Below are positions 12,480 to 62,237 of a stretch of 64,000 bases of DNA, piece after piece (positions within the stretch are counted from its first letter, which is position 1; each line of letters opens with the position of its first letter). Source of the stretch: Stegostoma tigrinum (taxonomy: Eukaryota); the NCBI RefSeq assembly GCF_030684315.1, contig NC_081358.1, forward strand, positions 6,690,496 through 6,754,495, written 5' to 3'. Made by a program: the position numbers and the translations under genes. Below the pieces are notes generated by a model. It made no database searches. It had not been told where the DNA came from and saw only the letters and a list, made by a program, of their open reading frames with translations.

Positions 12480-13250
12480 TAACAAGGAACAAAAACAGAA
12501 GTTGCTGGAAAAGCTCAGTAGGCCTGGCAGCATCTGTAAAGAAAAAAATCAGAGTTAACGTTTCGGACCCAGTGACCTTTCCTCAGAGCTGATGGTGGCT
12601 GGGAAATATCAGTTTATAGGCAGAAAATAGGGAGGTGGGTGTGGGGTAGGGAGTAAACAATAGGATATAGAGCCTAAAGAGAGAGAGAAGAGCAGTTGGA
12701 TAGACAAAGCAGTTGGTAACGATCAGGCTGGGATGGTGAATAGTTGTTAATGGGGAATAGTAGTGACTAACAACAGGGAATGTGTAACGGCAGGCTATGT
12801 GGCAACAAGGCTTGGTCTGTGCCGCAGGGGGCTGGACATGGGAGGTTTTACACCCTAAAATTATTGAACTTGATATTGAGTCCATGGGGTTGTAGGGTTT
12901 CCAAGCGGAAAATAAGGTGTTGCTCTTTCAGCTTGCAATGAGCTTCGCTGGCACACTGTAGCAAGCCAGAGGTAGAGATGTTGGCCAGGGAACAGGGTGG
13001 TATGTTAAAGTGGCAGGCAGCAGGAAGCTGAGGGTCTTTTTTGTGGGCAGAACATAGGTGTTCTAGGAAGCAGTCATCCAGTCTATGCTTCGCTTCCCCA
13101 ATGTAGAGGAGACCACATTGTGAGCAGTGAAAGCAGTAGACTAGATTATGGGAAGTGCAGGTGAAGTGTTGCTTCACCTGGAAGGTTATGTTTCGGCCTT
13201 TGGATAATGGGGAGGGAGGAGATAAAAGATGTTGCATTCTCGCTGGTCAC
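12480..13250 (-). mobile_element. PLE family C 3' fragment (GIY-YIG plus pLTR)
   Basis: ORF 12848-13237 NLVYCFHCSQCGLLYIGEAKHRLDDCFLEH...RLETLQPHGLNIKF. Its pLTR end is shared with 36135-36302 and 53712-53868. Confidence 0.88.
12553..12590 (-). ncRNA. Hammerhead motif (PLE family C), stems partly mutated
   Basis: Minus strand agct-CTGAGGA-A-aggtcactgggtcc-GAAA-cg-TT-aact. Confidence 0.6.
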
Positions 13251-16914: not shown

Positions 16915-17790
16915 TGATTTGATTTATTATTGTCACATGTACCTAGGAACAGTGAAAATTTTATTTTGCATGCAGTAAAGGCAGATCATACTATACAAAG
17001 TGCATTAGGGTAGTATAACACAGCGAGAAACACAAAGTTGTGGCTGCAGGGAAGATGTACAGAGAGCATTATCAATGTTAAACTTAAAATTTGCGAGGTC
17101 CATTCAGAAGTCTAATAACAGCAGGGAAGATGCTTTTCTTGAATCTATTCATACGTGTATACAAACTCTTATATCTTCTTGGAATTCACTTGGAATACTG
17201 CGTCCAGTTCTGGGCGCCCTATTATAGGAAAGATGTGGATGCTTTGGAGAGGGTTCAGAGGAGGTTTACCAGGATGCTGCCTGGACTGGAGGGCTTATCT
17301 TATGAAGAGAGGTTGACTGAGCTCGGTCTCTTTTCATTGGAGAAAAGGAGGAGGAGAGGGGACCTAATTGAGGTATACAAGATAATGAGAGGCATAGATA
17401 GAGTTGATAGCCAGAGACTATTTCCCAGGGCAGAAATGGCTAGCACGGGGGGTCATAGTTTTAAGCTGGTTGGTGGAAAGTATAGAGGGGATGTCAGAGG
17501 CAGGTTCTTTACGCAGAGAGTTGTGAGAGCATGGAATGCGTTGCCAGCAGCAGTTGTGGAAGCAAGGTCATTGGGGTCATTTAAGAGACTGCTGGACATG
17601 TATATGGTCACAGAAATTTAAGGGTGCATACATGAGGATCAATGGTCGGCACAACATTGTGGGCTGAAGGGCCTGTTCTGTGCTGTACTGTTCTATGTTC
17701 TATGTTCTTCCCGCTGGAAGAGGGTGGAAGAGAGTATAGTCAGGGTGTGAGGGGTCTTTGATTATGTAGAAGTTTTGAAGGGACAGCCAA
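16915..17790 (-). mobile_element. Rex1/Babar LINE 3' end split by a CR1 insertion
   Basis: Joining 17709-17766 to 17095-17178 gives minus-strand IIKDPSHPDYTLFHPLPAGRRYKSLYTRMNRFKKSIFPAVIRLLNG, a typical Rex1 C-terminus, with an (atcaa)n tail. Confidence 0.75.
17185..17708 (+). mobile_element. Young CR1 LINE 3' fragment
   Basis: Uninterrupted HLEYCVQFWAPYYRKDVDALERVQRRFTRMLPGL...FFTQRVVRAWNALP with a (ttctatg)n tail. Confidence 0.92.
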
Positions 17791-18018
17791 GTAAATAGGT
17801 ACATCTGGTAGCCCTGTTCAATTATGGACAGGGGGCAGGTGCCTAAGGCTAGAGAACTAATACATCACAACTTCTAGCACTCAGAGACTGGCAATCCCAA
17901 GTTCAGAGATGGCCATGTCTATAAGTAAGGGAAGAAAGGTACGTTTGCAGGTAAAGGTGTTGTGTCAGGTGATTTTTAACATTTTTAATTGTTTAAAATG
18001 ACAAAACTGCCAACATGA

Positions 18019-19774: not shown

Positions 19775-20540
19775 AATTATACAGTGCAGAACCGGCCCTT
19801 CGGCCCTCGATGTTGCGCCAACCTGTGAACTAATCTAAGCCCCTCCCCCTACACTATCCCATCATCATCCATATGCTTATCCAAGGGCTGTTTAAATGCC
19901 CCTCATGTGGCTGAGTTAACTACATTGGCAGGCAGGGCATTCCACACCCTTACGACTCTCTAAGTGAAGAACCTACCTCTGACATCTATCTTAAATCCAT
20001 CACCCCTCAGTTTGTAGCTATACCCCCTTGTACAAGCTGACACCATCATCCTCGGAAAAAGGCTCTCACTGTCCACCCTATCTAATCCTCTGATCACCTT
20101 GTATGCCTCTATTAAATCCCCTCTTAGCCTCCTTCTCTCCAATGAGAACAGACCCAAGTCCCTGAGCCTTTCTTCATAGGGCCTTTGCTCCAGACCAGGC
20201 AACATCTTGGTAAATCTCCTCTGCACCTTTTCCAATGCTTCCACATCCTTCCTGTAATGGGACGACCAGAACTGCACGCAATATTCCAAATGAGGCCGCA
20301 CTAGCGTTTTGTACAGTTGCAGCATGACATCACCGCTCCAGACCTCAATCCCTCTACCAATAAAACTTAACACACCGTAAGCATTTTTAACAGCACTACC
20401 AACCTGGGTGGCAACTTTCAAGGTTCTATGTACATGGACACCAAGATCCTTCTGCACATCCACACTACCAAGAATCTTTCCATTGACCCAGTATTCTGCC
20501 TTCCTATTATTCTTTCCAAAGTGAATCACCTCACATTCGA
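19775..20540 (-). mobile_element. CR1 LINE 3' fragment
   Basis: ORF 19960-20544 CEVIHFG...[12 protein letters not shown]...RRLRGDLIE. Confidence 0.92.
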
Positions 20541-21134
20541 ACATCTGGGAGGCAGAAGTTATTTAGTGGCAACAGCTTTTGTAAAAACCTCATGTTTTAT
20601 ATGAATTAAATCTTTAAGAACTGTGGAGGGCAAGAAGAAAAAAAATATGTTTCTAAAAAAAGAACTGACCAGGATGGTTCCATAATTTCACAACGAGGAA
20701 TACAATTACTAGTTAGAATTTTGTATTTTGTGGCTGTGGATTTCCTGCAATGTGCAGATGTTCAGTAGCTGAGGAATTGCTTACAAAAGAACCTGATTGG
20801 TTGTCAGCTAACTGAGCAGTTTGGAACTGGAAATGAGTTACAGAGACATAGTCAGACAATGAAAGAGAGAAGCACAGAAGGTTGTGTTGCCCTCTCTAGC
20901 AGAATCTGCCTCTTCTCTGCAGTAAAAAAAACTTAGTTTAAGCTTGAATAAACCAAGCATCTTTCCTGATGTAGTTGCTGTGAGCTGTGGCCTTTGAATA
21001 GATAAATCAGAGACATTTTCCAAGTGAATCAGTTGGTTTGTTCTTCTTATAAATCAGTAGAAGCTCCTAGAGAAAGATAATGGAATACTATGGGCCTGTT
21101 TTGCCAAAGTAGAATCTTCTTAACATCAGAAAGT

Positions 21135-25779: not shown

Positions 25780-26820
25780 GTGTTCAAATGCAGCAAAACC
25801 AAAGCAATATCCAAGGAGCAAGTAGCATTCCCACCACATAAATGCTAGAAATAATCATTCACTACAAGCGAGAATCTAGCTGTCACCCCTTGACATTCAG
25901 TGGTGTTACCATCTCACTATCAACACTGTGCAAGTTATCATCGACCAAACTGAACCTGCATATAATTACTTGGCTCCATGTGGAGGTCAGGTGTGATCAT
26001 GCAGTAACTCACCTCCTGACTCCCATAAAGCCTATCCACTGTTTACAAGGCATGTCAGGATATGATGGTACAGTAGTTACTTACTGCTGCCTCACAATGC
26101 CGAACACCCAGGTTTGATTCCAGCCTTGGATGACTGTCTGTGTGGAGTCTGCATGCTCTCCCTGTGTCTGTGTCGGTTTCCTCTGCAGATGTGCAGGTTA
26201 AGTGGATTGGCCGTGGTAAATTGCCCTGCTCTGTCCAGGGATGGTCAGGCTAGGTAGATGAGCCATGATAAATATGGGGATAGAATGGGGGTGTTTGGGT
26301 CTGGGTGGGATGCTCTACAGAGAGTTGGTGCAGGCTCCATCAGCAGAATAGCCTCTTCCTGCATTGTAGAGAATTCTTTCCATTTGCCTGCAGGAATGCA
26401 GCTTTAACAAACCCAGTGTACTTGATTGTCACCCACGCTCCAGTTACAACATCCATTCCATCCACACTATCATAAACTACGATGTGCCATTTGCAAGATG
26501 TGCTGTAGCATCTCATCAATGTTCCTTCGTAAGCATCTTTCAAACCCCTGACCTCTACCACCTGGAGGCCCAGGGAAGCACCACTACCTGCAGTTTTCCT
26601 TCCAAGCTGCACATCATCCTGACTTGAAAGTACATTCCCATCCCTTCACTGAGCCAAAATCCTGGAACACCGTTTTTAATGACAATGTGGGTGTCCCTAA
26701 CCTGTTTAACTGCAGTGGTTCAAGAAGGCAGCTCACCACCACCTTCTTAAGGGAAATTAGGGATGAGGGAAAAATGCTGGTCTGCAGACATGTCCATATA
26801 CTGCGAATGATTAAAAAATG
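25780..26820 (+). mobile_element. Old CR1-group LINE 3' region interrupted by a V-SINE
   Basis: Homologous to 40830-41515 on both sides of the SINE at 26066-26376. Confidence 0.7.
26066..26376 (+). mobile_element. HE1-like V-SINE
   Basis: V-domain present; inserted in a LINE. Confidence 0.8.
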
Positions 26821-29800: not shown

Positions 29801-30700
29801 CTTGACTGGGTCTAAGGATCTACTTGGTTTTCAGTGATATAGGAAAACCATTAGTGAGTGTCAACAGGAAGTGGCTGCCATCTTACACAAGCTGTCATTT
29901 ATCATATGATAGCAATCAGGTCCGACTTACCACTAGTATTAATGGTAGACCTATGGATATAAGTCTTCACTCTACAAGATCCTGAGATGTTTTATCTTTT
30001 CCAACACAAATTCTTGTGTCATCATCAGATTGTGTAGGGATTAATGCAGTCTCCAACATTAATCCTTTCAGAACCATGCCTTATACGACATGAGGATGCC
30101 TCAAGAGTGCAGCATTTCTCTCTAACCAACCCATCTCTCTGTTATGCAATCTTTGCTGTATTGGTTAAAATTACTACTAAAATGTTTAAAATTTATAACT
30201 GTACTCTTTGATCCAGTAAATGAACAAAGAGATTGGAATATACACTATAATAGCATCCTGTTAAGAAAAGATGATCCTTTTTCTTTAAAGTCACCTAAAT
30301 AATTTCCTCATTCCCCACCCAAGGTAAGACCCCACTCCTGGGCCTAAGAGATGAGAAAACAAACCGGGTGCAAATGGTGCAAATGCTAACCTTCTCTCCT
30401 TTCTTATTGGAAAACAAATGCCACCTATTGCCCTGTGCCTGCCCATCCTCTCCTCACTATTTGAGCTTCATTCTGTGAAGTGTCATTTAATTGATCAGTG
30501 CCCCTGTCACTGTATTCAACATGCACCCCCTTCCCCAAAGGCACACAGTAGATGCAGTGTTGACATGCATTGCTGTTCCTCTGTTACTACATTAACCATT
30601 ATCTATCTACTACCGTGAGGGACCATTGTCACCACAGGTCTGGAGATGTTCAAGTGAAATATGTAGCATGGGATTCTCAGACTATCAAGCAATGAGCTAT

Positions 30701-30808
30701 AATTGTGGTCCATATTCCAATACCAAACGTAAATAATTGTATTTCTAAATCAAGAATTGTGGTCCATATTCCAATACCAAACGTAAATAATTGTATTTCT
30801 AAATCAAG
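30701..30808 (+). repeat. Perfect 54-bp tandem duplication
   Basis: aattgtggtccatattccaataccaaacgtaaataattgtatttctaaatcaag at 30701-30754 and 30755-30808. Confidence 0.95.
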
Positions 30809-31410
30809 AAATTCAGAATGCTGGATCAGGCAGGAAACCTATATAATTATAAATCTGATGCATTAAAAAGAGGAGCTAAAAAGCACAGCAAATTACATAA
30901 AAATTCAGCCTATTTTAAATAAGTAGAACAATCATAATGGTAATGTTTTAGAATTAAATATATCTATTACATTGACCTTCTCCTGGCTGAAAATTTTGAC
31001 ACTTTTTGTTTGTAATGCTTCTAAGTGTCATGAAGTTATCAACTCCTCTCACTTGGAATGAACTCAAAAGATAGTAAAGTTGTGGCTGAGGCATTTTAGG
31101 CATTGAATAAACTCTCCAGCTGGCATTAAAGCATCAACATTGAATCAAAGCTCTTAAGGGCCTCAAGAAATCTCTTAAAGGCATCAAAGGGAAGCACCCA
31201 AAGGAGACTCTCAAAGGCATCAAATCACATCAAAAGCATTCAGCAACCCATGTGTTGACAAAAGCAGTGAAATCTGCAAACTTATAAAACAATGAAAATG
31301 GTAACATGAACTACAATGAAAACAACAAATTATAAAAACAATGGGAATCATATAAAATAGCCAGAAACCCATCAGTTATTAAATAGCCTCCAATTACATG
31401 ACTGAAACTT

Positions 31411-31590
31411 GAGATGCTGCTGGGCCTGCTGTGTTCATCCAGCTCCACACTTTGTTACCTGGTGAGTCTCCATCTTGTTTCAGAGACAGTAGGAACTGCA
31501 GGTGCTGGTAAATCAGAGATGAACACAGCAGGCCAAGCAGCATCAGAGGAGCAGGAAAGCTACTGTTTCAGACCTAAGCCCTTCTTCATC
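31411..31590. mobile_element. Two short PLE family A pLTR fragments in opposite orientation
   Basis: gatgctgctgggcctgctgtgttcatccagc on +, then a minus-strand pLTR end running to a decayed hammerhead (cccttcttcatc). Confidence 0.7.
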
Positions 31591-32346: not shown

Positions 32347-34896
32347 AGTGAAAGGTTACTATGTGACAATGTGTTACTTTCTTTACCCTGAATAAAAATA
32401 TAAGTAAATCAGCTTGCATGGGAGGAGAAGGTTTTGCTCAGTAAAAAAACTAATTTCCTACCAAGCTTACTACAACTTTGATTCATGTTCCCACAATCCA
32501 GTTTTGATTTACTCATTGCAAGTGTCTCATCTATTGTCACAAACAGATGAGATGGCAAAATCTTTTTCTTCATCCCCTCTCAGTCATTCACAACAAATAA
32601 TTTTGCTTCTTTTTAATGTGCAGCTTTCACATTTCAATTGAAGTGTAATTAACTGGATCAAAATGCAAATAAAAATACTTGAGTGCAAGAAAGAGGAATT
32701 TTATTACCTATGTCCCCAAGAGAATAATAAAAATGTGACATTAAACACACAAAAACACAGTTAATAAACTTAAAAATAAGATGGGAGTGAGCTGGTATCT
32801 GCAGTGATAATGAGTGATAACAATTTCTTGTTTCACGTTTTTAGAGTCTAAATGTGTTAGATTTTAATCTCAACTGTCTTATTTCTTCAGTGAAGTTTGT
32901 AGATCTTGAGATGTCAGTGAACAGTGTCTCAGTTATAATTTTAGTGGGCACTGGTTTTTGAGATGAGAGGTAAACAGGTAGAGAGTTTTTTTTCCAGTTC
33001 TGGCTTGCAAATGAATTTTTCTTCCTCTCTGCTTTGTCACTTGGAAACAACTGTTAACATAAGTTTGTATTTCTCTACAACTTCTGAGTCCAGAATCAAG
33101 GAAGAGGGATAACATTTACCCAGTTGGAACCAGAAAGTCTCCTCTTCACCTCGCTTCATCTTTGAGATCCTCGTCATTTTTACAGCTTGTTGTTCATCAG
33201 TAGCATTCCAGTCTGAAGGAGCTAAGATCTTTAAATGTCTCATTAAACATGCTCATTGTTTAGTTTCTCTATTCTCTAGCTGTCTAGGAATGGGCACATT
33301 TTCATTGAAATAAAATGGAGTTATTGTTTGCATCTAACTCCTCAAACACTTGGTTGTGGAAGACTCTTATTCAGCTTCCAGCCTATAACTATCAACAACT
33401 GAGAGCCAAGCATCGCCGTGATGATGCCTAAGAGATACATCTTGACCAAACTTTTACATTTCTGCACCTTTGTTCATCTTCTCGACTGTAGAAACTTTTG
33501 TGTTTCGCGAATTTTGCAAGATGAATCACTGATTGTCTAATTAGGGAAAGGACCTCTCCCAATAGAAAAGTTCTCTGTACGAAAGCCAATAGTCCTGAAT
33601 TGGCAACAAGATTCCGATATATTTTCCGTGTTAATGTCATGCCTTGCTTCCCACATTAGTGAGGAGAGAGAACATTCAAGTCAATGCTTTTAGCTTTCAC
33701 ATTCAATTGATTTACACAAAAGATCTTTCATGATGTTTGCAGATGCAGAAATCGGCTTCCCAAGGAGAGTAATTGAATTGAAAATAACATACACAATTAT
33801 TGTCAAATTGATAAGTAGGTGGAAATTGCTGGTTTGATGCAAGTAGTCTTCACTTTTTCAGGATGTTATTCAGGATTGTATTCACTTGCTTCATGCAGCA
33901 ACTGCAAGTAGTGCCAGTTTGGCATGGATTCATCATGGTTCCTCAAAATGTTATCATTTCAAATTCACGAAGATATTTTAGTGCAATACTGAACTTGTAC
34001 CTAGCTGGAAAGACCTTCTGAATTTCAAATAAGCTTACCATCTGCCTGCTGAGATCATAACATATCTCTGAAGTATTTGAAGAATAGCTATTCTCATATT
34101 TTTGTCAATGTTTAACTCTCATCTAGTATTGCCAAAAATGAATTTAGTGCTCATTCATTTAATTGTTGCTTTTGGGACCTTGTTTTTAAATTAGATGCAT
34201 CCTGATTTTTGTCAGAGGGTCATATCTGAGCAACCTTTCACACTGTCAGATAGTTGGTAAATTTATAGCTGCACTGGATCAATTTGGCTGGAGGCCAGGG
34301 GCAGGGACAGAAATCATGGGCCCTGGTGCTGCTCCTGCCTTGAGTTCCTTGGCCTCCATAGAAACCATAGAACCAAAGAAATGATACAGCACGGAAGGAA
34401 GCCATTTGGTCCTGCTTGTCCATGTCACCCCCAAAGATGTCCCTTCTCATCCCATCGTCCTGCATATAGGCCATACCCCTGCAGGTTTCTCTTGTTTACT
34501 CTATCGCTATACCTCACAGTTTTGTATCTTGTTGCCTCTCAGCCTTCTCTGTTCCAAGGAAAACAACCTCAACCTCTCCAATCAGTCCTCATAGCTACAG
34601 CTCTCCAGCCCTGATAATATTCTAGTAAATCTTCAGTGCACTTTCTGCAATTATGTCTTTCCTGTAATGCAGCTAGTAGAACTGTGCACAATATTCCAGG
34701 TGTGGCCTCATCAGTGTCTAATACAGTTTCATCATCATATCCCCACTTTTGCATTCTATACTGCTGCCAGTGATGGATAGAATTCTGTGTGGCTTTGTTA
34801 CAATCTTATCTACCTGTGCAGGTATCTTTAGGAACGTGTACATGCTGAGATCTTTCATTTCATCTACCCCTCTCAGTACATTACCGTTTATTGTAT

Positions 34897-35530
34897 ATAG
34901 AACATAGAACAATACAGCACACTTCGGCCCTCGATGTTGCGCTGACTTGTGAACTAATCTAAGCGCATCCCCCTACACTATCCCATCATCATCCATATGC
35001 TTAACCAAGGACTGTTTAAATGCCCCTAATGTGGCTGAGTTAACTACATTGGTAGGTAGGGCGTTCCACATCCTTATCACTATCTGAGTAAAGAACCTGC
35101 CTCTGACATCTGACTTAAATCTATCACCCCTCAATTTGTAGCTATGCCACCTCGTACAAGCTGAAGTCATCATCCTCGGAAAAAGACTCACTGTCCACCC
35201 TGTCTAATCCTCTGATCATCTTGTATGTCTCTATTAAATCCCCTCTTAGCCTCCTTCTCTCCAATGAGATGAGACCCAAGTCCCTCAGCCTTTCTTCATA
35301 GGGCCTTTGCTCCAGACCAGGCAACATCCTGGAAAATCTCCTCTGCACCTTTTCCAATGCTTCCACATCCTTCCTGTAATGGGGCGACCAGGACTGTACG
35401 CAATATTCCAAATGAGGCCGCACTAGCGTTTTGTACAGTTGCACCATGGCTCCGGAGCTCAATCCCTCTACCAATAAAACCTAACACACCGTAAGCCTTC
35501 TTAACAGCACTATCAACCCGGGTGGCAAAT
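34897..35530 (-). mobile_element. Young CR1 3' fragment nested in an older CR1
   Basis: [29 protein letters not shown], highly similar to 19780-20415. An older CR1 lies at about 34355-34896 and resumes at about 35530-36590. Confidence 0.9.
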
Positions 35531-36134
35531 TCTGTCATATTCTGTTTTACTGTTTGGCCTCCCTAAATGCATTACCTCACACTTATCAGAGTACCACTTT
35601 CCTGCCACCTATATCATTTTGGAGTTTGCAGTTATCCTCTACACTATCCACTACATGTCCAATTTTTGTGTTGTCTGTAAATTTCCCATTTGCAAATCCC
35701 TATGTTCAAATCTAAATTGTTAGTACATAAAACAAACAGCAGGGGTCCCAACTCTGAGCCCTGTGGAACATCACTTGAAACAGATTTCCATTCACAAGGA
35801 CACCCATCAACTATTACCTTTGTTTCCTGTCACTAAGCCAAACTTGGATCCAATTTGACACATTCCCCTGTGTTCCATGAGCTTTTACTTATCGTCTGCC
35901 ATATGGGACATGACAAATTCCTAACTAAAATCCGTGCAGACAACATTCATTGCACCACATGTATTGATCCTTCTTGACACTTCTTCGAAGAGTTCAAGGA
36001 AGTTTGTAAGGCATGATCTTCCCTTAACACAGCCCTACTGACAATCCATGACTGGTCCATACCTTTCTAAGTGACAGTTTACCGACCTCTCAGAATTGAT
36101 GCTAACTATCGACCCACCACTGAAATAAGACTAA

Positions 36135-36302
36135 AAATCAAAAGAACTGCAGATGCTGTAAATCAGGAACAAAAGCAAAGTTGTTGGAAGGGCTCAGCAA
36201 ACCTGGCAGCATCTGTGAAGGAGAAAACAGAGTTAACGTTTCAGGTCCGGTGAGCCTTCCTCAGAAGTTCCGAGCAAGGGTCACCTGACCCAAAACATTA
36301 AC
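36135..36302. mobile_element. PLE family C mini-insertion with inverted hammerhead pair
   Basis: gttaacgtttcaggtccggtgagccttcctcagaa followed by its decayed reverse complement gttccgagcaagggtcacctgacccaaaacattaac. Confidence 0.8.
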
Positions 36303-36593: not shown

Positions 36594-36812
36594 TCAGAGA
36601 TAGTAGGAACTGCAGATGCTGGAGAATCTGAGATAACAAGGTGTAGAGCTGGATGAACACAGCAGGCCAAGCAGCATCAGAGGAGCAGGATAGCTGACAT
36701 TTCGGGCCTAGACCCCTCCTCAGAAATGGAGTAGGGGAAGGGGGTTCTGAAATAAATAGGGAGAGAGGGGGAGGTGGATAGAAGATGGATAAAAGAGAAG
36801 ATGGGTGGAGTG
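36594..36812 (-). mobile_element. PLE family A-like solo pLTR
   Basis: Homologous to 60143-60360 and includes a hammerhead-like motif at 36696-36723. Confidence 0.82.
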
Positions 36813-37029
36813 GACACGGACTCCTCCCATTGGTTTACCACTGATTTATCCTTTAGCAGTACTGCCCAGTCCACCTCAGCCAACATGAGAACAGAGGCCT
36901 TGACCCCAGCTCAAGCACAGTGAGCCCTAGTTATTGGATTCCACTGTCCCATGCCCTGCTCAAGGCACAGCTAGTTCTGGAAAATAGATTTTCAGTCCTA
37001 CAGTCAAACTGTTATCTGAATCCATTCCT

Positions 37030-37830: not shown

Positions 37831-37838
37831 TTGGATAA

Positions 37839-38410
37839 CATCATCAGAGCAGCCTCCGATCAAGCGTTGGTGTGTTTTCCTGCCTGGTTTTTAAACTCTG
37901 GGGTCCGTTGAGCTGGTTTACCTCACTTCCAGTTTTCCTTTGTAGTGGAGTGCATGTGGGGTCGAGTTCTATGTGCTTATTGCTGGCTTTCTTCATGGAG
38001 TACCAGGCTTCTAGGAATTCCCGTGCCTGTCTCTGCCGAGCCTGTCTCAGGATCTTGGTGTTGTCCCAGTCAAAGTGGTGGCTCTCCTTGTCCATGTGGA
38101 TTGAACTGAGTGAGTATTGGTCATGTCTTTTTGTAGCCAGCTGGTGTTCATGTACTCTTGTTGTTCTACACAGAGAACTCGACCCCATATACACTCTGCT
38201 ACGAAGGAAAACCGGAAGTGAGGCAATCCATCTCAGTGGACTCCAGAGTTTAAAAACCAGGCGGGAAAACACACCGACACTTCATCGGAGGCTGCACTGA
38301 TGATGGTCTGAGCGCATGGCAATGAATCATCTGCGGGACAACTAACCAGTTCGGCCAGCCAACCAACCTCAACACCCACAACTCGAACTACAAATCTACT
38401 CCAAAACCTT
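37839..38410. mobile_element. PLE family D (Poseidon-like) 3' fragment with inverted pLTR
   Basis: Minus-strand RVHEHQLATKRHDQYSL...HHFDWDNTKIL...REFLEAWYS...NKHIELDP, which is a GIY-YIG C-terminus. 37843-37965 is inversely duplicated at about 38175-38303. Confidence 0.85.
38294..38334 (+). ncRNA. Decayed hammerhead motif (PLE family D)
   Basis: gca-CTGATGA-tggtctgagcgcatggcaat-gaat-ca-TC-tgc. The 5' core and stem I (gca/tgc) remain, while GAAA and stem II are mutated. Confidence 0.45.
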
Positions 38411-38549
38411 AGAGAGCTACTCTTCATATTGAACATTAAAGTTTCAAATCAAAGTATATTTTGTCCCTTTGGCACCCTTGGGACTACTTCTAATATCAGT
38501 AGGTAAAAATCAAAGAGTGTCATCTAATCTGAACAATACTATTTTATCC

Positions 38550-38685
38550 AAGAAAACAAAATGTGGGGCTGGATGAACACAGCAGGCCAAGCAACATCTT
38601 AGGAGCTGCTTGGCCTGCTGTGTTCATCCAGCCTCACACTTTGTTATCTTGGATTCTCCAGCATCTGCAGTTCCCATTATGTCTG
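38550..38685. mobile_element. PLE family A fold-back mini-insertion
   Basis: Inverted arms with TSD aatactattttatcc / aatactactttatcc (38535-38549 and 38686-38700, one mismatch). Confidence 0.82.
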
Positions 38686-38959
38686 AATACTACTTTATCC
38701 TTATTCTATCAGTTTTAATGTGCTCCAACCTTTATCGTGAGTCCAATCTTATCTATGTTTTCTGATACCACTTCAGAAAATCCAAACAGGTTAGTTAAAT
38801 GTGACTCCATTTTTCAGGATCCACGCTGACATTTTCAAAACTTTATTTTCCATCACTTGTGTCACTTGTTCATCACATTAGTTCTTTGACATGCCGCACT
38901 GCACAAATAAAAAATTCGATTAAAAAATATACCATTTGTCTTCAGTCTCCATCACAAAC

Positions 38960-41787: not shown

Positions 41788-42081
41788 CATAGAATCCCTG
41801 CTGGGCAGATTTGGTCTGCACCAACCCTCTGAAGAGCATCCCACCCTATCTGCACAACCCTGTATTTACCATGGCTAATCTGTCTAGCCTGCTCACCCCT
41901 AGGCACTATGAGGCAATTTAGCATGGTCAATCCACCTAGGCTGCATGTCTTTGGACAGTGGGAGGAAACTGGAGTACGCAGAGGTAACTCATGCAGACAC
42001 GGGGAGAACATACAAATTACACACAGACAATCACCCAAGGTTGGAATCGAACCCGGGTCACTGGTGCTGTGAGGCAGCACC
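41788..42081 (-). mobile_element. HE1-like V-SINE
   Basis: Reverse-complement V-domain and B box (ggaatcgaacccggg). Confidence 0.85.
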
Positions 42082-43486
42082 TCTCTTGGTTTAGTTTGCT
42101 GTGTCCAAATTATCCCATTTCCAACCTCTTGTAAAAGGATATTCAGTATTGTGAATTTCTGTGCTGGACCTTCATGTGACTGAATAAAGCCACAAATCTT
42201 TGGATGCGTGGGGCAGGATGTCCCATGAGGTAATGGGGAGCAGAATTTGCTTCCTTTTCCTTCCTTAGCTGCAGCCACTCTACCTTATCAACAAGACATT
42301 GGGTATGAAGGGTTAATGCAGCTCGATGGACGAGTATCTCCATTCTGAACAATGGGGGCAAGCTCTGCCCACTGTTGCCCCTCTGGAAAAGAATGGCCAT
42401 ACATGTGGCTGCCCAGTGACCCCTCCCCATAAAGAAGGCGGATGTCGCCATAGTGTAGAAAATTTGGGGCTGGGTCCCTGTTCCATGCAAATGGTGGGAC
42501 CAAAAACTTTTTTTTATTGAATTTGGAGTTTACAAAAGATATTTATGAAGCCTCTCCACCCATCCCCAGGAGCCATCTCTTCCTCCATCCCATCTCAATC
42601 TCACCCTTTGTGGAGCTGAGAAAAATACAGCCTGCTTGCTTAGGACTTCATTCATTCTCCACTCAATGATTCAATGGAGACTGCGGCTCCCAAAGTCAGA
42701 GTTGGCCAGTTGTGATGCTACTGAGCCATTCGTGGTGATGGACATGGAAGTTGTCATGACCACAAATCATAACCTAGAATCTTCTATAGCTATATTACAC
42801 TATTATTTCCAACGTCATTTTTTTCCCAAAAGAGGACTGCTGCCGCCAAAATAATATGGATGTAAATTCAGTGGCCAGTAAATTCAGAGGAGTTGGTCGG
42901 GGGGAGGTGAGAGTGTGAGAGAGACAGAGAGAGAGAGAGAGGGAGAAAAAGATTGTGGATGAGCCACACCTGATGAGTTGTCAAGGATGCTTCAAAAAGA
43001 TGTACCAAAAAGGGAGAAAATGCACTACAAACTGAGTCATAACCTTCTGGTCTCCTGTGACCTATTTCAGACTGTGAACATGATGGGAGAAAAGATAACA
43101 CTTTGGCAAGAGCTATGTTTTGCACCCTCCTCTTTTAAGAACAAGAAACAAGAACAGGTGAGAAAGGAGGTTCAGCCCTGGCCTGTGTGTGCTAGTGGAA
43201 GAAGGTATTGTGGTTAGCTGAAGTGCTCACATGTGGCAGTGGACTGCAGTACTCATATATACAGTTTGGGTTTGAGAACTAACATATTATGAAAATTGAC
43301 GAACCACCCAATAGTCACCCCTGTGTTGCTGGTCAAGGACTCTCTTGCTCTGAGTGTTAGTGGCCAATCATTATCAGAAGGAAACAGGACAAAAGAATCT
43401 CAAATAAACTGCAAAGCCATGGACAAAACAGCTGAACTCTAGAGGTGAGTTGAAAGTGATGGCCCTTAAAGTCACAGCAGCATTGG

Positions 43487-43770
43487 GGTGGCACAATGGC
43501 TGAGCGGTTAGCACTGCTGCCTCACAGCATCATAGACCTGGATTAGATTCCAGCCTTGGGCGTCCCTGTTTACGGGGTTTACATATTCTCCCTGTGTCTG
43601 CATGGGTTTCCCCTGGGTACTCCAGTTTCGTCCCAGATGTGCAGGTGAGGTGGATTGGCAATTGGAAATGCAGGGTTTATGGGAATAGGATAGGGGAAGG
43701 GTCTGGGTGGGATGGTCTTTGGAGGGTCAGTGAGGACTCATGGTTTCTGCACTGTAAGGATTCTATGACC
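43487..43770 (+). mobile_element. HE1-like V-SINE
   Basis: ggttagcactgctgcctcacagc head and V-domain. Confidence 0.82.
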
Positions 43771-46395: not shown

Positions 46396-46490
46396 TTTTT
46401 TCTGACGAAGGGTCTAGGCCCAAAACGTTAGCCTGCTCCTCTGATGCTGCTTGGTCTGCTGTGTTCATCCAGCTCTACGCCTTGTTACCG
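46396..46490 (+). mobile_element. PLE family A-like mini-insertion beginning at the hammerhead core
   Basis: ctgacgaagggtctaggcccaaaacgttagc...; 11-bp TSD aagtgcgatct (46385-46395 and 46491-46501). Confidence 0.82.
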
Positions 46491-47707: not shown

Positions 47708-48000
47708 TGGCACAGTGGATCAGTGATTAGTATTGCTGCCTCACAGCACTAGGGACCTGAGTTCGGTTCCACCCTCAGATCACTGTCTGTGTAGAGTTTG
47801 CACATTGTCCCCGTGCTTGTGTGGGTTTCCTCTGGGGGCTCTGGTTTCCTCCCACAGTCCAAAGATGTGCAGCTCAGGTGGACTGGCTGTGCTAAATTGT
47901 CCGTAGTGTCCTGGGATGTGCAGACTAGGTAGATTAGACATGGGAAATGCAGGGTATAGGGTCAGGGTGAATGCTGCTTGGATGGACTGAATGGCCTGCT
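47708..48000 (+). mobile_element. HE1-like V-SINE
   Basis: Head plus V-domain with a truncated tail. Confidence 0.82.
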
Positions 48001-49000: not shown

Positions 49001-49619
49001 CTGCAAATAGGAGGAAGTGTTGAACAGCAAGTTGCAGGAGATTCACGTGACAACATTGGAACCATCAACAATACTCCAAATACTAATTTACATCAGCTGT
49101 GAGAATGTAAATGTATGTGTGACACATGGCTTAATGCAAATGAAATCTACACCCCTTAACTCCAGATTGGACATCTTACAATACCAAAGCCTAATCACCT
49201 GATCTGAAAAAGATCGGGTCAAAAATCACATAACACCAGGTTAGAGCTGAACAGGTTTATTTGAAGATGCAACCTTTCAGAGTCTCGCTCCTTCTTCAGA
49301 TGTCAGAGAGAGAGCTGGCATCAGACGCAGAATTTGTAAGCAAAAGATCAAATAGGTCATAGAACTGATGCAAATGTGCTGAACAAACTTTGATTTTATC
49401 AGTATACCAGAGGTGACATCTCAGGTGAGACAATGCATATTAGGTGTGAGGCCTTGTTTAGAATCTGGCTGTGTACCAACTTGGAGTCAGATTGTTTTCA
49501 TTTCCAAAGTAGGAATTTGTAAAATGTCACATTGTCTACAAACTGTGTGCCTTTTGAATAAAATAGAATGTATCTATGATTAAAAATCTGCAAATGCAAA
49601 TTCACCCCATAGATTTATA

Positions 49620-49922: not shown

Positions 49923-50011
49923 ATAACAATGAACACCTCGCCAAGATCTTCCCTATGCCCTACTTCTCATCTTCAAACAACCACCAAACCTTAAACAGAT
50001 CATCGGTCACA

Positions 50012-50398
50012 CCAGCCCAGTTCGTCCCCTCCACCCACTGCATCCCAAAACCAGTCCAACCAGTCTCTGCCTCCCTAACCTGTTCTTCCTCTCACCCATC
50101 CCTTCCTCCCACCTCAAGCTGCACCTCCATCTCCTACCTACTAACCTCAGCCCACCTCCTTGACCTGTCCGTCTTCCCTGGACTGACCTATCCCCTCCCT
50201 ACCTCCCCACCTACACTCTCTCCACCTATCTTCTTTACTCTCCATCTTCGGTCCGCCTACCCCTCTCTCCCTATTTATTCCAGTTCCCTCCCTCCATCCC
50301 CCTCTCTGATGAAGGGTCTAGGCCCGAAACGTCAGCTTTTGTGCTCCTGAGATGCTGCTTGGCCTGCTGTATTCATCCAGCCTCACATTTTATTATCT
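50012..50398 (+). mobile_element. PLE family A solo pLTR nested in the family B element
   Basis: Matches the pLTR at 53290-53675. The host sequence resumes after it (tcggtcaca / tcgttcaca near-duplication). Confidence 0.85.
50304..50335 (+). ncRNA. Minimal hammerhead ribozyme motif (PLE family A)
   Basis: ct-CTGATGA-A-GGGT-ctag-GCCC-GAAA-cg-TC-ag. Core is intact, with palindromic ACGT and GUC cleavage after 50333. Local stem I is only 2 bp. Confidence 0.72.
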
Positions 50399-50825
50399 TC
50401 GTTCACAGGAAACTACGCAGCCTTCAGGACAACATAGAACATAACACCACAACAACCCTGCCATAGCAACCTCTGCAAGACACGTCAGATCATCAGCATG
50501 GACACTACCATCACACGTGGGAACACCGCCCACCGTGTGCACGGCAGATAGTCATGTGACTCGGCCAACGTTGTCTGTCTCATACGTTGCAGGTGATGAT
50601 GCCCTGAGGCATGGAATATTGGCAAAACCATGCAGACACTACAACAACGGACATATAGACATCACGTAACTATTGCCAGACAGGAATGATCCCTCCCAGT
50701 GCAGGAACACTTCAGTGGTCAAGGACATTCAGCTTCGGATCTTTGGGAAAATATCCTCCAAGGCGGAGTTTGAGATACACAGCTACAACGCACAATCGCC
50801 GATCAGAGGCTGATAGCTGCGCTTT

Positions 50826-51133
50826 AGAGTCCCTACAGTGTGGAAACAGGCCCTTCGGCCCAACAAGTCCACACCGACGCTCGCAGCATCCCATCCAGAC
50901 CCATTCCCCCTATAACCCACCTAAGGTGCACATCCTGGACACTACGGGCAATTTAGCATGTCCAATCCACCAATCCTGCATATCTTTGGACTGAGAGAGG
51001 AAACTGGAGCACCCGGATGAAGCCCTCGCAGACAGGGGGAGAATGTGCAAACTCCACACAGACAGACACCCAACGCCTGGATCCCCGGTGCTGTGAGGCA
51101 GCACTGCTAACCACTGCACAACCGTGCCGCCCC
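50826..51133 (-). mobile_element. HE1-like V-SINE nested in the PLE family B endonuclease
   Basis: Reverse-complement SINE splitting ...DQRLIA | ...GTHEDGLYRDLG. Confidence 0.87.
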
Positions 51134-51733
51134 TGCTTGGCACACATGAGGATGGCCTCTACCGGGATCTTGGGTCCATGTCGCACTACAGGTGAACCAA
51201 TCACACTTCACACTCTCACACACACAAGCACTCTCCCTCTCTTCCACACACACACACACACATGTGTGACACATCCTTTTTCTCTCTTCACCCCACTCCC
51301 AAATGCCCCCCAACCCACCTTCTCCCGCCCCCAACACACTCATGTAAATGTGTGGGGTGAGTTTGCATTTGCAGACTTATTCCATTTTGTTCGAAAAGTG
51401 CACAATCTATAGACAGCCAATGCGGATTTTTACAAATTCCTACTTTGGAAATAAAACTAATCTGACTCCAAGTTGGTACACAGCCAGATTCTAAACAAAG
51501 CCTCACACCTAACATGCTTTGTCTCACCTGAGATGTCACCTCTGGTATGCTGATAAGATCTTTAGTTATCTCAGGGCTCACTTGAAAGAAATTCTGGGAT
51601 TTGCATATTAATGCTTTTTAACTGATTAAAGACTTAACAGCCATTTTGAGTTTGTTCAACACATTTTGCATCAGTTTTATGACCCTTTGATCTTTTGCTA
51701 ATAATTTCTGTATCTGATGCCACTTCTCCCCCT

Positions 51734-51772
51734 GACACCTGAAGAAGGAGCGAGACTCCGAAAGCTTGTGTC
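51734..51772 (+). ncRNA. Minimal type I hammerhead ribozyme (PLE family B)
   Basis: gacac-CTGAAGA-A-GGAG-cgaga-CTCC-GAAA-gc-TT-gtgtc. Stem I is gacac/gtgtc (5 bp), stem II is GGAG/CTCC, stem III is replaced by palindromic AAGCTT, and the predicted cleavage is after CUU (51767). Confidence 0.8.
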
Positions 51773-52911
51773 TTCAAATAAACTTGTTCAACTATAACCT
51801 GATGACATGTGATTTTTGGCCCTGTCCACCCCAGTTCAACACCGGCACCACCACATCCTGAAAAAGATGTTATTTTGAACCGCACAGCCCATACAGCAAC
51901 AAGGTGGAGTGACTTCACACAAATATGTTCCACTTGACTCTCTTCTGCAGGTAACAGAAAAAGTGCTTTCGCAAGCTTGTGTGAATATGCTCATTGACTG
52001 GCAACCAAGATTAACAAAAAGAAGCTAAAACTTATAATTTATCAAACCAGATTTCATTCTGGGATCTGACTTGTCCAATATTACCACAGCACGAACCATA
52101 ACAATCTGTATTAACCAAGGAGCTTTTCAGAGGCTTAAACTGCTATTGTTTTATTTGAAAAGTATGGCTGTTCTATGGCTTAATGCAGCTGATTTTCGGA
52201 AATCATTCCAAATGTTTCCGGGATAATGCTATTTTCAGTTTGCTCCCGATTTCTTGATATGCTGCCATAATGGGTGAGGCTCTAAACTGAGAGGATAGAT
52301 TTGTACAACCACCTCTAAGTGACCATCTATGTCAAATATTACCTGCTTGAGTTTTAGCAATAATAGTCGTGTGGTGCTTATGGTTCAAGCATAGTATGGC
52401 ACAAATATAATGTTCAAATTTTTAAAAGGTACAAAATTAAAGGTTTAACAATGTTAAGGACCTCATGACCAAGTATAAATGGTTGTGAGTTTCAGATTGA
52501 ATGGAAAGCAACAAATTGTATTTATATTGTGCCTTAAATGCAGTGAAATTTCTAAAGACTCATCACCGGTGTTGACAGTCCACAGATGTGTTTTTCTTTT
52601 GAATGGAGTTTTGGATTAGCATATCTAATACACTCTACCGAAGGATCCTGCTACATTTAGTTCCCGGCTTCAAAGATGTAAAATAGATATCTGAGGGTCC
52701 AAATGGCAGGCCACATGTATGTATTCTTTCTGTACCATACCTACCATGCTCTAAAGAAACCATGATTGACCTCTAAGTTTTAGGTATTTAATTACATAGA
52801 ATCATAGAAATATTTGAATAAAAGGCATCAGTTCGTTCATAAACTGAAGTTGCTGTTCATAAACAGAAGCATCTGTGAAGAAGATATCAAAGTTAATTTG
52901 ATTAAAAAAAA

Positions 52912-53711
52912 GGCCCCGAGATCACTTTCCATATTAAGCAGAGGTTCACCTGCACATCTGCCAATGTGGTATACTGTATCCATTGTAACCGGTGTGGCTT
53001 CCTCTACATTGGGGAAACCAAGCGGAGGCTTGGGGACCGCTTTGCAGAACACTTCCGCTCGGTTCGCAATAAACAACTGCACCTCCCAGTCGTGAAACAT
53101 TTTAACTCCCCCTCCCATTCTTTAGATGACATGTCCATCATGGGCCTCCTGCAGTGCCACAATGATGCCACCCGAAGGTTGCAGGAACAGCAACTCATAT
53201 TCCGCTTGGGAACCCTGCAGCCCAATGGTATCAATGTGGACTTCACCAGCTTCAAAATCTCCCCCTCCCCCACTGCATCCCAAAACCAGCCCAGCTCTTC
53301 CCCTCCCCCCACTGCATCCCAAAACTTGCCCAGCCTGTTTCTGCCTCCCTAACCTGTTTTTCCTCTCACCCGTCCCTTCCTCCCACCTCAAGCCGCACCT
53401 CCATTTCCTACCTACTAACCTCATCCCACTTCCTTGACCTGTCCGTCTTCCCTGGACTGACCTATCCCCTCCCTACCTCCCTACCTATACTCTCCTCTCC
53501 ACTTATCTCCTTTTCTCTCCATCTTTGGTCCGCCTCCCCCTCTCTCCCTATTTATTCCAGAACCCTCACCCTATCCCCCTCTCTGATGAAGGGTTTAGGC
53601 CCAAAATGTCAGCTTTTGTGCTCCTGAGATGCTGCTTGGCCTGCTGTGTTCATCCAGCTTCACACTTTATTATCTTGGATTCTCCAGCATCTGCAGTTCC
53701 CATTATCTCTC
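52912..53711 (+). mobile_element. PLE family A 3' fragment (GIY-YIG plus pLTR)
   Basis: ORF 52966-53352 VYCIHCNRCGFLYIGETKRRLGDRFAEH...RLGTLQPNGINVDF, with the same pLTR as the 60140 element. A 10-bp duplication tcaaagttaa lies at 52887-52896 and 53712-53721. Confidence 0.9.
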
Positions 53712-53715
53712 TCAA

Positions 53716-53753
53716 AGTTAACCTTTCGGGTCCAGTGACCCTTCCTCAGAACT
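53716..53753 (-). ncRNA. Minimal hammerhead ribozyme motif (PLE family C)
   Basis: Minus strand agtt-CTGAGGA-A-GGGTC-actg-GACCC-GAAA-gg-TT-aact, with a 4-bp stem I and 5-bp stem II. The stem III palindrome reads AGGT here but ACGT in the copies at 12553-12590 and 36231-36265. Confidence 0.72.
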
Positions 53754-53879
53754 GTTCTTTCTGTTTTTTTCCTGTTTTTCTTCACAGATGCTGCCAGACC
53801 TGTAGAGTTTTCAAGTAACTTCTGTTTTTGTTCCTGATTTACAGCATCCGCAGTTCTTTCAGTTCTTACCATTTGGTTT

Positions 53880-59902: not shown

Positions 59903-60037
59903 AAAATCACACAATGCCAGGTTATAACCCAAAAGGTTTATTTGAAAACGCAAGCTTTTGGAGCTCAGCTGTTTCCTCAGGCATTGTGATTTTTGACCTT
60001 ATCCCCACAGTCTAACACTGGCATCCCCACATCATAG
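59903..60037. mobile_element. PLE family B fold-back mini-insertion
   Basis: Matches both ends of the 49215-51857 element. 12-bp TSD caatccatgcca (59891-59902 and 60038-60049). Confidence 0.8.
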
Positions 60038-60139
60038 CAATCCATGCCAGTATATTAACGCCAATCCCATGGGCTTTGATTTTGTACACTAAAAGGTCTT
60101 ATATGAGACTTTATCAAAAGCTGACTGAAATTCCAAATA

Positions 60140-62237
60140 GTATCAGTGATAATGGGAACTGCAGATGCTGGAGAATCCAAGATAACAAAGTGGAAGCTGG
60201 ATGAACACAGTAGGTCAAGCAGCATCTCAGGAGCACAAAAGCTGACGTTTCGGGCCGAGATTCTTCATCAGAGAGGGGGATGGGGAGAGCGTTCTGGAAT
60301 AAATAGGGAGAGAGGGGGAGGCGGACCGAAGATGGAGAAAAAAGAAGATAGGTGGAGAGGAGACTATAGGTGGGGAGGTAGGGAGGGGATAGGTCAGTCC
60401 GTGGAAGATGGACAGGTCAAGGAGGTGGGATGAGGTAGTAGGTAGGAAATGGAGGTGCGGCTTGAGGTGGGAGGAAGGGATGGGTGAGAGGAAGAACAGG
60501 TTAGGGAAGTGAAGACAGGCTGGGCTGGTTTTGGGATGCAGTGGGGGGAGGGTCGAGCTGGGCTGGTTTTCGGATGCAGTGGGGGGAGGGGAAGAACTGG
60601 GCTGCTTTTGGGATGCAGTGGGGGAAGGGGAGATTTTGAAGGTGGTGAAGTCCACATTGATACCATTGGGCTGCAGGGTTCCCAAGTGGAATATGAGTTG
60701 CTGTTATTGCAACCTTCGGGTGGCATCATTGTGGCACTGCAGGAGGCCCATGATGGACATGTCGTCTGAGGAGTGGGAGGGGGAGTTAAAATGGTTCGTG
60801 ACTGGGAGGTGCAGTTGTTTATTGCGAACCCAGCGGAGGTGTTCTGCAAAGCAGTCCCCAAGTCTCCGCTTGGTTTCCCCAATGTACAGGAAGCCACGCC
60901 GGGTACAATTGCTACAGTATACCACATTGGCAGATGTGCAGGTGAACATCTGCTTAATATGGAAGATCATTTTGGGGCCTGGGATGGAGGTGAGGGAGGA
61001 GGTGTGGGGGCAGGTGTAGTACTTCCTGCGGTTGCAGGGGAAGGTGCCGGGTGTGGTGGGGTTGGAGGGCAGTGTGGAGCGGACAAGGCAGTCATGGAGA
61101 GAGTGGTCTCTCCAGAAGGCAGACAAGGGTGGGGATGGAAAAATGTCTTGGGTGGTGGGGTCGGATTGTAGATGGCAGAAGTGTCGGAGGATGATGCGTT
61201 GTATCCGGAGGTTGGTGGGGTGGTGTGTGAGAACGAGGGGGATCCTCTTGGGGCGGTTGTGGCGGGGGCGGGGTGTGAGGGATGTGTCGCGGGAAATGCG
61301 GGAGACGCGGTCAAGGGTGTTCTCGATCACTGTGGGGGGAAAGTTGCGGTCCTTGAAGAACGTGGACATCTGGGATGTGCGGGAGTGGAATGCCTCATCC
61401 TGGGAGCAGATGCGGCGGAGGCGGAGGAATTGGGAATAGGGGATGGAATTTTTGCAGGACAGTGGGTGGGAGGAGGTGTATTCTAGGTAGCTGTGGGAGT
61501 CGGTGGGCTTGAAATGGACATCAGTTACAAGCTGGTTGCCTGAGATGGAGACTGAGAGGTCCAGGAAGGTGAGGGATGTGTGGGAGATGGCCCAGGTGAA
61601 CTTGAGGTTGGGGTGGAAGGTGTTGGTGAAGTGGATGCACTGTTCGAGCTCCTCTGGGGAGCAAGAGGCGGCGCCGATACAGTCATCAATGTAACCGAGG
61701 AAGAGGTGGGGTTTGGGGCCTGTGTAGGTGCGGAAGAGGGACTGTTCCACGTGACCTACAAAGAGGCAGGCATAGCTTGGGCCCATGCGGGTGCCCATGG
61801 CCACCCCCTTAGTCTGTAGGAAGTGGGAGGAATCGAAAGAGAAGTTGTTGAGGGTGAGGATGAGTTCGGCTAGGCGGATGAGGGTGTCGGTGGAGGGGGA
61901 TTGGTCGGGCCTGCAGGACAGGAAGAAGCAGAGGGCCTTGAGGCCATCTGAATGAGGAATACAGGTGTATAGGGATTGGACGTCCATAGTGAAAATGAGG
62001 TGTTGGGGCCAGGGAATTGTAAGTTCTGGAGGAGGTGGAGGGCATGGGTGGTGTCACAGACTTAGGTAGGGAGTTCCTGGACCAAAGGGGAGAAATCCCC
62101 CTCTCTCCCTATTTATTCCAGAACCCTCTCCCCATACCCGTCTCTGAAGAAGGGTCTAGGCCCGAAACATCAGCTTTTGTGCTCCTAAAATGCTGCTTGG
62201 CCTGCTGTGTTCATCCAGCTTCACACTTTTGTTATCT
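60140..62237 (-). mobile_element. Penelope-like retroelement, family A (Neptune-type), 5'-truncated with an inverted pLTR fragment
   Basis: Contains an RT plus GIY-YIG ORF, a 3' pLTR at about 60140-60620 and an inverted pLTR copy at about 62095-62237. Flanked by a 14-bp TSD tgaaattccaaata (60126-60139 and 62238-62251). Confidence 0.93.
60704..61987 (-). pseudogene. PLE reverse transcriptase / GIY-YIG endonuclease ORF, disabled
   Basis: RT motifs DVQSLYTCIP, GVAMGTRMGPSYACLF and YIDD; Cys-rich linker PCNRRKYYTCPH; GIY-YIG VVYC...LYIGETKRRLGD.FAEH. It stops prematurely at RRLQ*, whereas the copy at 52966 continues RRLQEQQLIFRLG. A stop and an apparent frameshift lie just upstream of the Met. 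Confidence 0.9.

Follow-up and report, generated by a model that had tools for sequence, protein, structure and literature searches.

Hammerhead motifs and element remnants in the window

A stretch of 64,000 nucleotides from Stegostoma tigrinum (contig NC_081358.1, positions 6,690,496 to 6,754,495), referred to here as the window, contains 15 recognisable minimal type I hammerhead ribozymes among the remnants of Penelope-like elements (PLEs). The motifs were recognised with natural relatives as probes. Features are given in window coordinates, and positions within an element are counted from the C of CUGA (C3) as 0; the predicted cut of family A lies between +27 and +28. The original prediction had counted about a dozen motifs in the 64 kb. 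The number stands for recognisable copies, but only two of the 15 are fully intact, a family A motif at 50306-50333 and a family B motif at 51739-51767. Motifs were found at or within about 5 nt of every position proposed earlier, and four (at 31589, 49299, 59980 and 36270) are additions. A window scan for the hammerhead core plus a stem II of at least 4 bp returned 6 perfect-core matches, against 0-1 in 12 local dinucleotide shuffles, and 11 matches with at most one mismatch, against 1-4 in the same shuffles. Two of the 11, at 30028 and 20765, fit no family and are probably chance; the former (29990-30028, minus strand) has a one-mismatch core and a 7-bp hairpin. An Rfam scan of the window gave no hammerhead among its 15 matches at E<=10, and its miRNA matches are inverted pairs of short element copies, called stubs below.

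The intact family A hammerhead (50306-50333, plus), with its core, 4-bp stem II, ACGT palindrome, GTC site and 2-bp stem I, closes the 3' end of the fragment 50011-50399. A second plus-strand motif (62144-62171), decayed at the stem III CpG, sits in a short copy (62096-62247) inverted against a long copy (60143-62053), and a third (53583-53610, plus), which has decayed at both G12 and the stem III CpG, ends the fragment 52911-53710 with its GIY-YIG remnant. On the minus strand, the motif at 60244-60271 has a broken stem II and lies downstream of a long open reading frame (ORF) remnant of 449 aa (60704-62053, minus) that spans the reverse transcriptase (RT) core, thumb, zinc-finger linker and start of the GIY-YIG nuclease. 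An older subfamily, A2, accounts for a motif with a decayed stem III CpG at 36696-36723 (minus, copy ~36594-36817), one that has lost G12 at 46402-46429 (plus), in a stub whose homology begins 1 nt before CUGA (46401 to ~46487), and a decayed stub at 31562-31589 (minus), new to the list. Three further family A inverted stub pairs were found. The halves begin inside the ribozyme at 270-463 (+25 and +10), at +11 and +12 at 3358-3554, and at +37 and +48 at 38546-38696, a pair that has no ribozyme. The pair at 3358-3554 interrupts a DDE_1 transposase remnant (Pfam PF03184; 2920-3450 and 3545-4069, minus).

The intact family B motif (51739-51767, plus) has a 5-bp stem I gacac/gtgtc, stem II GGAG/CTCC, an AGCT palindrome and a CTT site. 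Two decayed family B motifs, both newly listed, lie on the minus strand at 49271-49299 and at 59952-59980, the latter in a stub that begins 1 nt before CUGA. No complete family C copy lies within the window. The combination of GGGTC/GACCC with agtt/aact that had been assigned to this family applies only to the copy at 53749 (53720-53749, minus; 4-bp stem I, 5-bp stem II, damaged stem III palindrome), located in the inverted stub pair 53713-53859; the stems are broken in the copies at 12586 and 36264. The former (12557-12586, minus) is a decayed motif downstream of a GIY-YIG remnant (12848-13246, minus). The latter belongs to a back-to-back inverted pair at 36235-36299 (36235-36264 minus, 36270-36299 plus), with 5' ends at -2 and -4. 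At 53772-53859 and at family C loci, a pyrimidine run ending in CACAG, similar to a 3' splice site, occurs about 20 nt past the cut site; A2 has no AG there. The family D motif (38297-38331, plus), directly after the end of a Poseidon-type ORF, is heavily decayed, in line with the decay proposed earlier, and is recognisable only through its relatives. The motif belongs to an inverted structure spanning 37829-38412, whose minus strand holds a further, cut-off motif start near 37847.

Element families and the ribozyme fold

Sequence comparison supports the assignment of motifs A, B, C and D to four distinct PLE families, as originally proposed. Upstream of each motif type, on the same strand, is a remnant of an RT, a GIY-YIG nuclease or both; protein identity to A is 51-63% for C, 28-33% for B and 22-27% for D. 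Family C motifs lie behind RT and nuclease remnants, the family D motif directly follows a linker-less ORF, and the link of family B to a protein comes from one broken locus (L037) with an RT-linker-nuclease remnant about 28% identical to A. Full family A copies (L132, L133) have a hammerhead on either side of an open frame of 1092 or 1101 aa, about 3.6 kb apart. Counted from the ATG, these single ORFs are 1080 and 1089 aa long and encode an RT with a C-terminal GIY-YIG domain. Relative to the 5' ribozyme, the ATG lies at +166; relative to the 3' ribozyme, the stop codon lies at -227. The protein carries RT motifs, DKG, YIDD, a CNRRKCYTC linker and the YIG of the GIY-YIG domain, and it matches Pfam RVT_1 and GIY-YIG, with RT scores below the curated cut-off. 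Its best named homolog, 77% identical, is an uncharacterized protein of the shark Chiloscyllium punctatum, with the next matches at or below 56%, and the homologs obtained carried no element name or were called 'uncharacterized'; a PDB sequence search with the full ORF gave 0 matches. Before the RT lies a Pro/Thr/Ala-rich repeat (TPPTADADG-like) whose length varies between copies, and the ORF has a repeated low-complexity C-terminal tail (both in L132:3595-6834, minus). Proteins of B, C and D were seen only as broken remnants. The CX2-5CxxC zinc-finger linker, CNRRKCYTC in A, is degenerate in C and B and absent from the family D frames (L083, L098). By the linker criterion of Craig et al., A, B and C would be Neptune-type and D Poseidon-type; the choice of Neptune over Nematis for A-C depends on this linker and on published work in which vertebrates had no such type other than Neptune and Poseidon. 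Subfamilies A2 and D2 exist beside the four families. D2, a second and younger Poseidon-type hammerhead family with a 6-bp stem II and a 3-bp stem I, is absent from the window and was found at L140:2980-3081, L167, L171, L216 and L251.

The motifs had been placed in the pseudo-long terminal repeats (pLTRs) of the elements. This holds for copies with the order pLTR-ORF-pLTR, but many motifs reside in short 5'-truncated stubs and not in ORF-flanking pLTRs. Family A has pLTRs formed from partial tandems, inverted 5'-truncated copies and a 30-40 bp tail.

The proposed class, a minimal type I hammerhead with a palindromic stem III, is borne out, since core, stems, extra nucleotide and palindrome are all present. 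Neither the catalytic core bases nor the cleavage triplet vary among the four families, and the extra nucleotide before stem II is found in all of them. In stem II, family A has GGGT/GCCC, family C GGGTC/GACCC, family B GGAG/CTCC and family D GTTACC/GGTAAC, with the closing pair G10.1-C11.1 in A-D (GC or GU in 13 of 14 copies). Stem I has 2 bp in A (56 of 68 family-A-length motifs of the genome sample) and 3-5 bp in B, C and D. The stem III palindrome is ACGT in A, C and D and AGCT in B, and most departures in A are CpG decay.

Pairing was assessed in 14 natural copies, 11 of them from the window families, including loci L131, L133, L134, L140 and L150. In stems I and II, 86.7% of cells are paired, compared with 62.0+/-3.3% in shuffled sets and 17-46% with slid partners. 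Changes on both sides of a pair occur in 6 of 7 stem pairs across families, a value that 112 of 500 shuffles also reach; the other four pairing measures are reached by 0 of 500. The shuffle control ignores the relatedness of the copies, and the pairing statistic is thus descriptive. The claim that the stems differ yet stay complementary is retained between families, in which compensatory change is seen, but not within a family, where variation is mainly post-insertion decay.

That these motifs would cleave as dimers is taken from the literature. All five copies examined permit an active double-hammerhead to be drawn, and in none of them is it the predicted best fold. For family A, the active-dimer fold has a predicted energy of -5.5 kcal/mol compared with -22.8 for a pair of monomers, whose cores are sequestered. 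Reports of weak cleavage with protein assistance in other PLE hammerheads are in keeping with such an unfavoured active dimer. Two exact family A hammerheads on one strand, 59 bp apart (G000:C1:2722793 and 2722852), form a natural close dimer.

Copy number, decay and the ends of inserted copies

The genome comprises 3.2 Gb, and counts are exact pattern matches genome-wide. A generic core pattern, which ignores stem pairing and the palindrome, has 203,121 matches (control 263), or one per 15.7 kb, which supports the very large motif count expected from the window. The family A 28-mer has 96,611 exact matches (control 0), and the strict patterns for B and C have 205 and 1,977. A sample of 120 stretches of 10 kb at even spacing holds 86 motifs, of which 47 combine a palindrome with a stem II of at least 4 bp; this sample is below the genome mean, as its 24 exact family A 28-mers extrapolate to 64,000.

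Family A copies decay close to neutrally, mostly at CpGs. Among 37 long A1 copies, mismatches affect 1.0% of non-CpG core sites (4/407), 1.9% of other sites (23/1,184) and 12% of CpG sites (18/148). G12 and the palindrome are among the decaying CpGs; 17 of the 37 copies remain fully intact. An earlier core-decay estimate of 6.4% was too high because it took in copies cut short within CUGA, and the long-copy figure replaces it. Given the near-neutral decay, the motif load is mostly a by-product of a young expansion. The original prediction spoke of a ribozyme load, a term that overstates function, since the copies are mostly dispersed, decay about neutrally and do not favour the active dimer. 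A functional load of these ribozymes on host transcripts could be argued from the approximately 100,000 or more copies that retain core, palindrome and stem II. We find it very improbable, considering the decay of the long A1 copies and that single minimal motifs did not cleave in vitro (PMC4209133).

Many copies are stubs of 90-130 bp. Family A copies have two alternative 3' ends, +91 and +127, separated by 36 nt. A target-site duplication of at least 6 nt flanks 10 of 20 solo stubs and 2 of 20 controls, indicating that the stubs are insertion products. They could constitute an independent non-autonomous family, SINE-like (that is, like short interspersed nuclear elements) or retrozyme-like, perhaps spreading via circular RNA. 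Their very high copy number is consistent with this, as are tandem stub joints (+124 back to 0), one 208-bp tandem array and the PLE-derived retrozymes that Li et al. 2026 describe in one chondrichthyan. However, the stubs match the autonomous element base for base, with ragged 5' ends and the same two 3' ends, and cleaved-and-ligated circles would not yield the ends at -4/-5 with an extra G described below. An independent family is therefore unlikely. The tandem array itself (G000:C2:58043052-58044748) consists of at least 9 head-to-tail 208-bp units, each a family A 3' end from +23, and is retrozyme-like but without the start of the catalytic core.

The 5' ends of the copies accumulate at the edge of the ribozyme, in family A over -8..+10. 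In 86 young A1 copies, 24 of the 66 at risk end within -8..+2, compared with 10 of 76 within +3..+10 and 2 of 42 within -60..-9. Family C has 46 of 133 ends at -7..-1, and family B shows a weaker pile-up, 13 of 40 at -9..0 (repeated loci kept in both). The reference copy for the first 5'-end histogram carried a substitution at +29, which displaced +28 ends to +30/+31. Family A ends at -4/-5 are preceded by G in 10 of 12 cases where the element has C (expected 26%, p=6e-5), and joints into -4 with one inserted G also occur in DNA contigs of run X4. The extra-base tally left out 14 of 26 '-1/T' rows, long copies of the TTTT subfamily that had been classed as short. The extra G suggests that transcription starts there, and we regard a capped start 4-5 nt upstream of CUGA as likely for family A. 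The 5' edges coincide with what we take to be initiator-like sequences, TCAGTTC in C, TCACTTC in B and a pyrimidine run in A. Untemplated 5' G in L1 and SVA insertions has been attributed to cap copying (PMC3287187), and the Penelope of Drosophila virilis has an internal promoter within its pLTR. Several points weigh against this start. The extra-G count is small, its -4/-5 class was chosen after seeing the data, and half of the 12 ends are junctions between two element copies. The X4 contigs may share the window's own source, the G signal is unclear in family C, and family D has no pile-up at the ribozyme 5' edge (n=14 and 8). Family A lends no support to an intron whose end lies directly before the ribozyme, the arrangement in Drosophila virilis, since the nearest AG is at -23 and few copies end in -60..-9.

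A second, smaller step lies at the predicted cut site. Breakpoints were counted genome-wide as matches that begin at a given position and are preceded by three mismatching bases. Family A has 381 of these at +23, 221 at +26, 3,567 at +28, 508 at +29 and 556 at +30. About 3% of the approximately 189,000 family A copies (71 in the sample) begin at the predicted scissile bond, and 29 of 30 +28 loci checked are true junctions, with one a 2-nt deletion. Among 100 +28 matches listed, 64 begin with AAA, 9 with AGG and 27 with other bases. The AGG class shows mostly 3-nt microhomology with an inverted partner. Excluding both classes leaves an extrapolated ~815-965 matches at +28, or, after carry-over, ~815-1,140 non-palindromic ends, above the counts at +29 and +30. 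Among the first 50 of 2,085 short inverted junctions, the centre is AGCT in 27, GGCC in 7 and ACGT in 2. Palindromic joining explains much of the +28 peak, but not all of it. We lean, by a modest measure, towards the view that the step reflects self-cleavage.

The evidence also includes observations that count against cleavage. The AAA class consists almost entirely of perfect palindromes centred on AGCT (14 of 15 checked), which could equally come from blunt joining of two ends at +30, or of any two ends whose positions sum to 60, and cannot place an end at +28. The non-palindromic excess is only ~1.5-2.3-fold over +29 and +30, and its figure is extrapolated from the 100 listed rows, which come from one contig. 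The breakpoint positions counted skip +27. The cut site of family C does not stand out clearly, with 4 of its 133 ends lying at +27..+29 and 0 at +30, and no such peak was seen in small samples of B, C and D. The nearest-neighbour energies behind the predicted folds ignore tertiary contacts.

The chief rival to cleavage is an RT pause followed by microhomology, with the same elements and the same start but a +28 step that has nothing to do with cutting. RT would halt at the base of a folded region, either stem I or the alternative CUGAUG/CGUCAG hairpin, and the end would then be joined via AGCT. The predicted family A monomer hairpin does have its base at +29, 64% of the listed +28 matches fall in the ambiguous palindromic class, the counts at +29 and +30 also exceed that at +26, and family C is without a peak. 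A pause at the hairpin base, however, predicts +30, yet the non-palindromic +28 ends outnumber those at +29 and at +30. Some +28 ends adjoin host sequence and have a target-site duplication (L282, L280), others follow ORF sequence (L297, L298), and an equally long ACGT palindrome 5 nt away has ~26-fold fewer junctions. We consider a pause without cleavage somewhat unlikely.

Alternatively, the fold might be conserved chiefly for RNA-RNA pairing or protein binding, as a signal that brings two templates together at one break, with cleavage incidental; such a role would account for the high frequency of inverted pairs. An inverted partner abuts 107 of 245 sampled family A copies, the palindrome is kept between families with the compensatory swap ACGT -> AGCT, and insertion by the Anolis Poseidon element PAc in vitro was unaffected by ribozyme mutants (PMC11167929). 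This idea is at odds with the invariance, beyond the palindrome, of core bases and cleavage triplet in four families, and with Naiad PLEs, which lack canonical hammerheads and also make inverted copies (PMC8557442). We judge it improbable, slightly more so than an independent stub family.

Taken together, the motif and end data make the following account fairly probable in our view: minimal hammerheads lie at the ends of four PLE families, the short stubs derive from the RNA 5' leader, and the ribozyme is mostly off, with rare cleavage that acts as a brake. Transcription would start 4-5 nt upstream of CUGA, which would make the ribozyme the first thing in the capped RNA. The element protein may begin reverse transcription internally at +91 or +127, as in another PLE; in the 5' pLTR, RT would run off the capped end and leave ribozyme-only stubs, and two run-off cDNAs at one break would give inverted pairs. 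The ribozyme would cut only when two RNAs pair via the 4-nt palindrome with help from protein, and such a restriction would account for the small share of integrated family A copies that come from cut RNA. Because a cut would remove the leader cap, or at the 3' repeat split the priming site from the ORF, it is likely a brake and not a required step. Inserted copies would then decay about neutrally. We tentatively go one step further, to a reading that we hold a little less readily than its contrary, in which the genomic ends amount to a fossil 5'-RACE (rapid amplification of cDNA ends). Tens of thousands of stubs would mark the capped start and several thousand the scissile bond, among ~200,000 motifs, with low-efficiency in vivo cutting as a cap-removing brake.

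The window also contains repeats of other kinds. C-terminal RT fragments resembling long interspersed nuclear elements (LINEs), which we take to be of CR1 type, lie at 17088-17621, 19798-20562, 34603-35531 and 5520-5964; the stretches 19798-20417 and 34922-35531 share 90% identity. At least 7 copies belong to a dispersed SINE-like family of ~200-330 bp (6585-6892, 10602-10930, 26083-26333, 41816-42080, 43485-43662, 47708-47961 and 50825-51134), and 30701-30810 is a perfect 54-bp tandem duplication.

Comparison with known systems and significance

Published work still describes what PLE hammerheads do as unclear. Minimal hammerheads barely cleave in vitro (PMC4209133), and the one reconstituted PLE showed no cut-site RNA ends (PMC11167929). 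A young and extremely abundant family provides enough insertions to read RNA ends from DNA, and the breakpoint test is applicable to any PLE-rich genome. If the +28 step is cleavage, it would give a germ-line rate (~3% of templates), and the layout of a capped RNA that begins with its ribozyme would point to a regulatory role. If it is not, what is left is an unusually large yet ordinary PLE expansion with an inferred start site.

Families A-D are unnamed in the literature and databases searched. In that literature, with most subscription papers outside its scope, we found no hammerheads in shark PLEs at such scale and no genomic PLE 5' ends at a start or cut site; Lunse, Weinberg and Breaker 2017 may list shark motifs. 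Their small, dimer-cleaving PLE hammerheads are of the same class, judging by the title and a review account (PMC6765202). Shark or skate terms were not found in the two supplement files of PMC4209133 searched, nor was 5'-end mapping in its results, discussion and part of its methods. Further background is in 10.1101/2021.04.23.441226, PMC6155905 and PMC2377424.

The motifs closely resemble the minimal hammerheads in metazoan PLE pLTRs described by Cervera and de la Pena 2014 (PMC4209133). Both are type I with no real helix III and a palindromic 15.2-16.2, an extra nucleotide between 9 and 10.1 and a G10.1-C11.1 pair, and both occur as several families per genome, mostly as single motifs with close opposite-strand pairs. 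Family A stems, at 2 bp (I) and 4 bp (II), are shorter than the 4-5 and 7-8 bp of schistosome motifs in that source. The count is ~20-fold above the largest vertebrate figures that it gives, ~9,000 in Xenopus and ~4,000 in coelacanth, obtained with another descriptor. The families share with the EN+ PLEs of Craig et al. 2021 an RT with C-terminal GIY-YIG, partial tandems, inverted 5'-truncated copies and a 30-40 bp tail; the CX2-5CxxC linker of those elements is kept in A, degenerate in C and B, and missing in D. Non-LTR retrozymes (Li, Clavereau and Pollet 2026, 10.64898/2026.07.22.740005) are likewise non-coding, derive from PLEs and carry a type I hammerhead; one chondrichthyan has them. 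They are defined as tandem arrays, whereas copies here are mostly dispersed solo or inverted stubs, and no array of hammerhead-bearing units is among the 10 tandem-repeat rows of the window.

PAc (Frangieh et al. 2024, PMC11167929) likewise has two 3' ends a 'tail' apart downstream of its hammerhead, traced there to two internal RT start sites. Its uncut RNA is the main template, and its ribozyme, weak without protein, cleaves with protein assistance; published work on PLEs other than the present families describes internal RT initiation, extension on both strands, and protein-assisted, dispensable cleavage. In PAc, the ORF begins within the ribozyme and reverse transcription begins within the ORF, whereas both family A 3' ends lie upstream of the ATG (+166). 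No PAc RNA-seq reads began or ended at the cut site, in contrast to the genomic step here, and this too counts against cleavage as its cause. Earlier publications already report hammerheads in PLEs, more than one such family in a genome, lone motifs and inverted pairs (PMC4209133 and PMC8557442). The copy number and the end maps go further than this known association; the maps offer a genomic hint of in vivo cleavage and would make that question testable.

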